Shown one piece after another: positions 1-3,000 of a DNA stretch of 23,083 bases. Each line of letters opens with the position of its first letter. Positions within the stretch are counted from its first letter, which is position 1. Location of the stretch: UHGV virus genome UHGV-2162644. One strand, given 5' to 3'. A program made the position numbers. Source of the stretch: a virus.

Positions 1-3000
1 TAGCCCATGACCACACAATATGGATTTTTTATCGATTCCAGCCGCTGTACTGGCTGTAAAACCTGCGAACTGGCGTGCAAAGATTTTAAAGTTGGTTACG
101 TATCGTTTAAAATCAATTAGATAGCCCGTCATTTCTGCGCTCACACGTCCCAACATTGAAAAACATGCAAAGCTTTGTAAGCCGATGCAAAGCTTTGTGT
201 GTCTCACTTTTGTCCCAATACCAATCCGAATCCACCCTTTGTCATCATTGAGAAATGGCAAGGAAGAAAAGGATGTTACTGCACGATTTGACAAATCCGC
301 CAGAGCTATCGCATACTGATCGCACTGAACAAATAAGCGGTCTCCGCACCCGATAGCTTTGCGGCTTTTTTATGCCTGCAATTTGGCATAGTTACATCCG
401 TACAAAGGTCGGGTGGAGAGGCGTAATACAACACCCGCAAGGGGAATATGCCCAGAGCTTCTTATTTGGCTCAGTTGACACCCGACCGCCAGCTACTAAC
501 TGGCGGTTATAAACTAAACAAATAAGGAGGTCATCATGACCAGTCAACTCATCCCCGTATTCAACGGTTCTATCTCAAACCAAGCAGCCCTTCTATGCAA
601 TGCTCGCAATCTACACGCTTTCCTTGGGGTTGGTAAACGCTTTGCATCGTGGATAACAGAACGTATTGCTGAATATGGTTTCGTTGAAAATCAGGACTAT
701 ATGATTGCTTCCCAAATTCGGGAAGCAAAAGGTAGAGGCGGTCACAACCGCAAGGAATACCACCTCACCCTCGACACAGCCAAAGAGCTTGCGATGGTTG
801 ACGACTGCGTCCAATACTGACTATACTCCGCGCCGAGGCCTCGAAAACCTCCCAAAAGCGGATTAAACCAACCCCGTCAGTGTTGGATTTTTTATGCCTG
901 TTATTCAGTGATAGCACAGTGTGCGGTCACATCCCCGATCAATGTCGGGAGGGCGACGAATACAACACCCGCAAGGGGAATAAGTCCGCGGTATCTTTTG
1001 GGCCGTTTCGAGCCTCCCGGCACCACATCTTGTGGTGGCATTTCTCGAAAAAAGCCAAAGGAGGTCATCATGACCACTCAACTCATCCCTGTGTTTGAAG
1101 GTACAATCTCAAATGAACCTACGCTTCTGGTGAACGCGCGTGATTTGCATGGATTTTTAGAGGTAGGTAAAGATTTTTCTAACTGGATACGGGCCAGGCT
1201 AAACGAGTATGGATTCGTAGAAAATTTAGACTACATTCTATTTTCGCCAAATTTGGCGAAAACTCCAGGCCGCCGCCGCAAGGATTACCACCTCACCCTC
1301 GACACAGCCAAAGAGCTTGCGATGGTTGAACGTAACGAAAAAGGTCGCCAGATCCGCCGCTACTTCATCGAGTGCGAAAAGAAACTTCGCAACATTCAGC
1401 CAGTACAAGCAGAACCACAGCCGCAATTCACAGCCGAGGAAATCATCCTCCTTTGCTACATGCAGCTCTGGATGGAAAAAGCCCAGGACCTTAGCAAGCA
1501 GCTGTACCCCATAATGAAAGAGCTGAACTCCTCATACACGAACAAGCTGTATGACATTGCGTTTGAGACTATCTACATGGTGACGAAGAACAGAGATGTG
1601 CTACTGAGAGAGGCGGCACGGCTTGACCAGTCGAGTTTCGTAGTTCAGCGGGCCAGACCAATGCTGAAAAGCCTGCGGGCAAGACAATTTGAATTCTGAT
1701 ACCAAAGGAGCTTCGGCTCCTTTTTTTATACCTGAACGACAACGCCGCTGAAATCGAAGAGTTAATACAATAAAGAGAAGAGCTCAGTACATTAGATAAA
1801 CATTTTTTATCATTATCTCATTGCCTTTATTCAAAAAAATAGTTACATAACGTTACTAGGTAAAATGCAAACCCTCGCTATTTTTATCAGATTGTATGCC
1901 GGTAACTATAACAAAAATCAGAACTGGAGAAGATGTTTTGTCAGCAGCCATTCACCGCATTGAATGGTTGTTTGAAACATTCTCTTCTGTATGTTTATCT
2001 TTTTCTGGCGGTAAAGATTCCACTGTACTTTTCCATCTTGTAGCCGAAGTGGCCTACAGGAAGAAACGTCGTTTTTCTGTATTGTTCATTGACTGGGAAG
2101 CCCAGTATCAATGCACCATTGATCATATACAGAAGATGCGGATGATGTACCAAGATGTAACAGATACCTTTTACTGGGTTGCACTTCCCCTGACGACAGT
2201 AAATGGTGTCTCGCAGTTTCAGCCTGAGTGGATATGCTGGGAGCCCGGTGTAGAGTGGGTTCGACAGCCACCGGAAGATGCTATTACTGATATGGCGTAT
2301 TTCCCCTTTTACCGCTACGCCATGACTTTTGAAGAATTTGTCCCAGCTTTTTCTTCCTGGTTCGCAAGTAACCAATGTAGCGTGGCAATACTGACTGGAG
2401 TCCGCGCGGATGAATCTCTTAACAGATTTATGGGACTGGTTTCCCAACGAAAACTGAGATATGCAGATGATAAACCCTGGACCACGGCGTCACCTGAAGG
2501 TTTTTACTACACCATGTATCCGCTGTATGACTGGAAAACCAACGATATCTGGGTATATAACGCTAAAACCTGTGCAATCTACAATCCTCTGTATGATTTG
2601 ATGTACCGTGCAGGCATTCCTCTACGTAATATGCGTGTCTGTGAGCCTTTTGGCCCGGAACAGCGTAAGGGACTATGGCTTTATCATGTTCTGGAGCCAG
2701 AAACTTGGGCACGGATGTGTGAACGAGTATCTGGTGCTGCCAGTGGGGCTCTTTATGCCAATGAAAGCGGGGCCTATTTTGCCCTGCGTAAACGGATGTC
2801 AAAACCATCCCATCATACCTGGCGCAGCTATGCGTTCTTCCTGCTGGACGTAATGCCGGAAAGAACGGCTGAACACTACCGCAACAAGATAGCAGTTTAC
2901 CTGCGCTGGTATCAGAACCGGGGATTCCCGGATGATATCCCGGATGAACAGGAAAATGATCTGGGCTGCCGGGATGTTCCCTCCTGGCGACGTATTTGTA

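Follow-up and report, generated by a model that had tools for sequence, protein, structure and literature searches.

A ynfG junction consistent with the integrase-distal end of a Stx-phage-like prophage

Results

A truncated ynfG at the start of the window

The analysed window, a 23,083-nt stretch of the virus genome UHGV-2162644, begins with six bases of plus-strand host DNA (TAGCCC, 1–6), the end of the ynfF–ynfG spacer and contiguous with ynfF/ynfG in K-12-type genomes. These are followed by an ATG ORF of 37 codons on the plus strand (7–120; product MTTQYGFFIDSSRCTGCKTCELACKDFKVGYVSFKIN*), in which MTTQYGFFIDSSRCTGCKTCELACKDFK is joined to VGYVSFKIN and a TAG stop (118–120). Residues 1–28 equal those of K-12 YnfG, which then continues as DLGPEVSFRR.... 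The ynfG 5′ fragment itself, assigned by identity to E. coli genomes and by Pfam Fer4, comprises 28 codons and the first base of codon 29 (7–91, plus strand) and contains the first CxxCxxCxxxC 4Fe-4S motif, which Fer4 models match. The ORF as a whole is a chimaeric stub of 28 ynfG codons and 9 phage-derived codons, a pseudogene remnant. An earlier note, made from the sequence alone, had read it in the same way, as the N-terminus of the DMSO-reductase ferredoxin subunit family followed by an unrelated frame and a stop.

Using BLASTN, we compared window positions 1–150 with 5426 complete E. coli genomes, all of which (5426/5426) gave a match. Positions 1–91 aligned to ynfG with 99–100% identity among the genomes listed (E = 5e-38), and in every listed genome without this junction the ynfG alignment stopped exactly at base 91. 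The paralogue dmsB matched the same 91 bases with only ~80% identity. The target gene is therefore ynfG, at 100% identity in thousands of the genomes, and dmsB was rejected; of the dmsB/ynfG-type gene proposed earlier, the ynfG half stands and the dmsB half falls away. The 28-codon match, its coordinates and the breakpoint at about position 91 are confirmed as real and lie far above chance, and the same search locates the breakpoint after base 91, where the left prophage end had been placed.

The genomes that run past base 91 as the window does number 82 of 5426, and 55 complete genomes have the window's first 600 bases in common. In NCBI's annotation of the 600-base matches listed, the stub appears as an incomplete '4Fe-4S binding protein', with an antA/AntB gene after it. 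The junction of strain 06-00048 is identical; ynfC-ynfD-ynfE-ynfF directly precede it, and the NCBI pipeline (PGAP) flags the stub there as a pseudogene missing its C-terminus. In no lineage does a full-length gene run on into VGYVSFKIN, a sequence that follows the 28 codons at this prophage junction alone.

A further possibility is that the 37 codons form a true small gene for a ferredoxin-like protein, or that assembly produced a chimaeric junction. The ORF does have an ATG, one complete Cys motif and scores on Pfam Fer4 models. However, its 28 ynfG codons are the start of a gene whose 205-aa product requires additional Cys clusters, the ORF carries a pseudogene annotation, and the identical junction recurs in 55–82 independently assembled complete genomes, so that either version of this explanation is exceedingly improbable. 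A ynfG gene cut by a prophage is the reading that we retain.

The uninterrupted gene was found with a 120-nt probe spanning the intact attB, which is present at ≥95% identity in 5236 records; the empty site thus occurs in about 5,200 genomes, which provides the empty-site comparison suggested previously. For 199 records the best match of this probe was dmsB, and the same band obtained with a ynfG 5′-end query contained 118 records. The 81 extra records (199 − 118) match the 82 junction-bearing genomes, suggesting that this att module accounts for nearly every interruption at this position.

A 7-bp core common to attB, attP and both junctions

The crossover was defined by a three-way alignment of K-12 ynfG (attB), the window and the integrase-side junction of SW071611, a close relative with the same window-side junction. 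The phage site, attP, was obtained from Shigella phage 75/02 Stx, whose genome is circular, by joining the two ends of its sequence. In K-12, attB reads ...GGCGTGCAAAGAT, then TTTAAAG, then ATCTTGGCCCGG..., while attP of 75/02 Stx reads ...GGTGAGCAACAAC, then TTTAAAG, then TTGGTTACGTAT...; immediately around the core, attP is ...CAACAAC-TTTAAAG-TTGGTTACG... and attB is ...AAAGAT-TTTAAAG-ATCTTGG.... The window junction combines the left side of attB with the right side of attP, and the SW071611 integrase-side junction combines the left side of attP with the right side of attB. TTTAAAG (85–91, unstranded) is the sole stretch common to all four, which makes it the crossover core, and base 92 is the first unambiguously phage base. 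In the 75/02 attP, the left arm equals the integrase-side arm of SW071611 and the right arm equals the window from 92 onward.

Further features can be read from the two sites. In attB the core is flanked by AAGAT/ATCTT inverted repeats, and attP contains a 14-bp palindrome (CAACTTTAAAGTTG). Over 25 bp on the left side of the core, attB and attP are identical at 14/25 positions, compared with 7/25 on the right. Candidate overlap regions are the 7-bp TTTAAAG between AAGAT and ATCTT in attB or the 6-bp TTTAAA between CAAC and GTTG in attP. From their sequence, these inverted repeats, the palindrome and the left-flank likeness would suit core-type integrase binding sites.

This comparison also bears on whether ynfG was cut without an integrase, by a deletion, an IS-mediated rearrangement or recombination with dmsB, a paralogue that does exist and is ~80% identical to the ynfG stretch. 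Such an origin does not account for a reciprocal junction with the same 7-bp core, for two phage arms that are contiguous in a circular phage genome, or for the same breakpoint in 82 genomes of varied origin, and at window 85–100 there is neither an IS end nor a target duplication. The attP/attB/junction comparison refutes integrase-independent truncation for practical purposes, leaving it a negligible probability. The host–phage junction that had been predicted inside the 5′ end of a host gene is borne out by both the ynfG alignment and the attB/attP comparison.

The integrase-distal arm and its hairpin

To the right of the core lies the integrase-distal attachment arm (92–287, plus strand), equivalent to the lambda P arm and recognized by its identity with the Shigella phages POCJ13 and 75/02 Stx. 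From 92 to ~320 the window is 100% identical in both phages, and POCJ13 visibly diverges farther downstream. In the circular 75/02 genome, the arm from 92 onward is contiguous with the integrase-side arm. By contrast, VT2-Sakai and the PA-series Stx phages show homology to the window from base 288 onward only. Because VT2-Sakai-type homology starts only there, positions ~92–287 appear, from these alignments, to be an att-specific arm that travels as a module with the integrase. The reported integration site of the EDL933 Stx2a prophage is wrbA (PMC10562709).

Within the arm, two direct copies of ATGCAAAGCTTTGT are located 20 bp apart (163–202, plus strand), as identified by repeat search and RNA folding. 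Each copy includes the palindrome CAAAGCTTTG, and the two together form a hairpin with a 17-bp stem (−22.7 kcal/mol, z = −5.1), which was also listed as terminator-like and is 100% conserved in POCJ13 and 75/02. The hairpin sits 72 nt past the att core in the direction of int transcription across attP. A third ATGCAAAG occurs ahead of the core, in the 3′-terminal part of int. We regard the 163–202 repeats as candidate protein-binding sites or as a candidate terminator or sib/tI-like hairpin in the att arm. Two T-runs (335–380 and 860–905) were rejected as terminators, their hairpins folding no better than shuffled sequences (z = −0.65 and −0.90, respectively). Rfam matches to mir-19 over the hairpin (163–204) and to STnc130 (E ≤ 1) scored below the gathering scores and were attributed to chance.

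The integrase side and the prophages of relatives

Pfam scans of twenty ORFs of the window, comprising most of those of at least 90 aa, revealed no integrase or recombinase, and in relatives the integrase lies at the other prophage end, as the proposal of an integrase-free left side had implied. The best whole-window matches, up to 97.9% identical over 97% of the window, are ynfG-site prophages of several genomes; no genome of the collection searched contains an exact match to the whole window. In SW071611, the prophage is ~62 kb long and its reciprocal junction supplies the matching att core (TTTAAAG) and the 3′ part of ynfG that were to be sought at the far end: the integrase adjoins a ynfG fragment annotated as 'missing N-terminus', followed by ynfH, dmsD and clcB. 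The integrase has 387 aa and matches Pfam Phage_integrase (tyrosine recombinase) with E = 1.5e-45, and in relatives its gene ends ~50 nt from the core. In the SW071611 locus (L002 6152–7907), int has the same orientation as, and lies directly upstream of, the ynfG remainder, ynfH and dmsD. Since the window stops inside the tail-fibre region, we infer the int-proximal junction and an intact prophage in the present genome from these relatives.

The prophages at the ynfG site are mosaic and partly decayed. The lambdoid prophage downstream of the junction in strain 06-00048 has an N4-gp56-type capsid, portal, terminase, lysis genes, Q and tRNAs. Just past its ant gene is a group II intron that carries an ltrA reverse transcriptase (L001 7281–9011), an IS21-family element interrupts the accessory region, and several genes are partial; the SW071611 prophage also includes frameshifted or partial genes. 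No stx gene is annotated in these two ynfG-site prophages (06-00048 and SW071611), whose annotation was read.

Such decay in relatives, together with the fact that the window covers one prophage end only, raises the possibility that the same integration took place but left what is now a locked-in remnant, its integrase or other junction deleted and the present junction a fossil. Against this, the 23-kb window has long intact ORFs, including one of 2406 aa, and the closest phage record, PhiR5_2, lists E. coli K-12 MG1655 as host and carries an integrase at its int end. We consider a decayed remnant unlikely, and a prophage with its integrase at the far end remains our preferred interpretation.

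Antirepressor genes preceded by sRNA-Xcc1-type elements

Beyond the arm, the window carries two antirepressor units in tandem, all on the plus strand. The first consists of an sRNA-Xcc1-type element (407–495; Rfam RF02221, 69.1 bits, gathering score 53) and a short AntA-domain ORF of 94 aa (536–820; Pfam AntA, 1.8e-25), annotated as antA/AntB family in relatives. The second comprises another such element (944–1029; RF02221, 73.4 bits) and an antirepressor homologue of 209 aa (1070–1699), with AntA at its N-terminus (1.1e-26) and P22_AR_C at its C-terminus (4.7e-8). Both elements end 41 nt upstream of their ant ORF on the same strand.

The P22 immI region consists of mnt-arc-ant and the sar RNA. 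An immI-like antirepressor module had been proposed next to the junction, and the likeness is partial. As in P22, an antirepressor-type gene lies at the edge of the late/accessory region and the second ORF has P22_AR_C; unlike P22, the window has an AntA-type N-terminus and sRNA-Xcc1-type structured leaders, and a Pfam search with ten small ORFs (113–1742) produced no hit even at E ≤ 1, so that no Arc/Mnt-type repressor was detected near the junction. With Xcc1 elements in place of an Arc/Mnt ORF, the label is justified by ant homology only.

RF02221 elements were also found in L002 of SW071611 (23040–23123), in L005 (1427–1512 and 1964–2052, minus strand) and in L008 (270–355 and 806–890, minus strand). 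In all seven cases (7/7), counting the two in the window, an AntA- or ORF6N-domain gene follows on the same strand, its start codon 39–41 nt past the end of the element; the outer stem shows compensatory changes between copies. In the literature, sRNA-Xcc1 is reported to precede an ORF6N gene in APSE phages and symE in integron cassettes of Xanthomonas. Judged by position and covariation, sRNA-Xcc1 would appear to serve these genes as a cis-acting 5′ leader, beyond its catalogued role as a trans-acting sRNA. The two ant paralogues have a 54-nt stretch in common that is 98% identical (748–801 and 1276–1329) and otherwise only short repeats, and the first paralogue ends right after its copy, an arrangement suggesting that the tandem Xcc1-ant units have undergone recombination or gene conversion with each other.

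Other genes of the window

A PAPS-reductase/DUF3440 protein is encoded at 1896–3122 (plus strand), with an overlapping downstream ORF at 3107–3751 (plus strand); their counterparts in PhiR5_2 are annotated IbrA and IbrB. IbrAB are regulators of the prophage-borne immunoglobulin-binding Eib proteins, first described in ECOR-9. A YadA-anchor trimeric autotransporter lies at 20910–22211 (minus strand). On the minus strand, an ORF with a SocA/Panacea antitoxin domain (3840–4364; 2.4e-19), for which no partner was identified, may be half of a toxin-antitoxin pair or a defence module. The largest gene (4515–11735, minus strand) encodes a 2406-aa 'polyvalent' protein with LPD5, LPD1, MuF_C and LPD38 domains, and each related prophage or phage that was examined has an annotated version of this gene.

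Related phages and the published integration site

The Shigella phages POCJ13 (NC_025434) and 75/02 Stx (NC_029120), both Sepvirinae of the genus Diegovirus, use the same site and 7-bp core and have the same pair of Xcc1-ant units after the junction. They cover 73–75% of the window at 91–92% identity, with alignments ending near window position 20,000, and the late/accessory gene set and order, with the LPD-type giant protein, Lom and the tail tip fibre, is common to POCJ13/75/02-type phages. Both phages and the RM10410 prophage carry stx1a, while the Q-stx-lysis region of the present element lies beyond the end of the window. The window also has ibrA/ibrB-like and YadA/Eib-like genes, names that are absent from the abridged feature lists of POCJ13 and 75/02.

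The closest phage record is PhiR5_2 (PV340546.1; listed host, E. coli K-12 MG1655), with 94% coverage and 96.9% identity. It resembles the window in its IbrA/IbrB and Lom genes and in being 100% identical over 108–700, and its integrase lies at the other end of the record, which is linear, begins 16 nt inside the arm and does not display the att core. A literature search on PhiR5_2 and PhiR12_3 returned nothing relevant.

The integration site has been described for several of these elements. POC-J13 was found inserted in the S. flexneri locus S1742 (Gray et al. 2014, PMC4193171), and junction PCR on new lysogens placed it in S1742 in strain 2457T and in ynfG in E. coli MG1655 (PMC4193171). The published primer Stx_phage_up matches window 910–928 exactly, and its host-side partner, S1742_up, maps to ynfF, 234 nt ahead of the first base of the window; the pair thus predicts a 1,162-bp product here, compared with the 1,155 bp published (PMC4193171). 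Use of this site by 75/02 Stx is also reported, with reference to Toth et al. 2016 (PMC5447701). In E. coli RM10410, the Stx1a prophage is given as ynfG-(1,803,652–1,866,151)-ynfG (Carter et al. 2023, PMC10562709), and base 1,803,652 corresponds exactly to window base 92. Experimental site specificity would carry over to the present element by analogy with the literature on POC-J13.

Discussion

Taken together, our analysis indicates that the first 120 bases of the window (1–120) are almost certainly the integrase-distal junction of a Stx-phage-like prophage integrated in ynfG by a tyrosine integrase; the junction is of the lambda attR type, because the arm lies on the side away from int. The element is a short-tailed, Stx-phage-like lambdoid prophage (Sepvirinae), closest to PhiR5_2 and then to POCJ13 and 75/02 Stx. 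A tyrosine integrase would have directed its site-specific recombination into ynfG at codon 28/29, with strand exchange within the TTTAAAG core that attB and attP have in common. Integration splits ynfG, so that the 28-codon stub runs nine codons into phage DNA before its stop, and separates ynfG′-ynfH-dmsD from the ynfE promoter. At the far end, about 60 kb from base 92, the expected junction would comprise int-xis, ...AAGTGGTGAGCAACAAC-TTTAAAG-ATCTTGGCCCGG..., ynfG codons 29–205, ynfH and dmsD.

The logic is that of lambda-type integration, with a 7-bp shared core and a tyrosine integrase encoded beside attP, although lambda-type systems, with their short overlap core and long asymmetric attP arms, differ from the ynfG site in core sequence and arms. 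As at wrbA-type Stx-phage sites, insertion occurs inside a gene and inactivates rather than reconstitutes it. The affected gene specifies the Fe-S subunit of YnfEFGH, a selenate/DMSO-type reductase. At the integrase-side junction, there are in-frame stops ahead of the ynfG remainder, a GTG-GTG pair is the only possible start, and the first CxxCxxCxxxC motif is missing; we therefore rejected the idea that the phage arm rebuilds the ynfG N-terminus at that junction. This shows that ynfG is disrupted and inactivated in this strain, and YnfEFGH function is probably lost.

Two regulatory consequences may be envisaged. Because ynfE-ynfF-ynfG′ and both Xcc1-ant units are on the same strand, it is conceivable that anaerobic ynf transcription crosses the stub into the ant genes unless stopped by the 163–202 hairpin. 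That hairpin lies just downstream of int across the circular attP, so integration would uncouple it from int, in a manner that can be likened to sib/tI retroregulation in lambda. We regard this combination of read-through and uncoupling as quite improbable. It is also a matter of speculation that read-through from int keeps ynfH-dmsD expressed once these genes are cut off from the ynfE promoter.

Since the ynfG integration site and its specificity were already published between 2014 and 2023, the junction is an ordinary one that leaves current understanding unchanged. Our findings fix the prophage boundary at 91/92 and place the element in the ynfG-integrating, Stx-phage-like group, which helps annotation and the typing of Stx-phage insertion sites.
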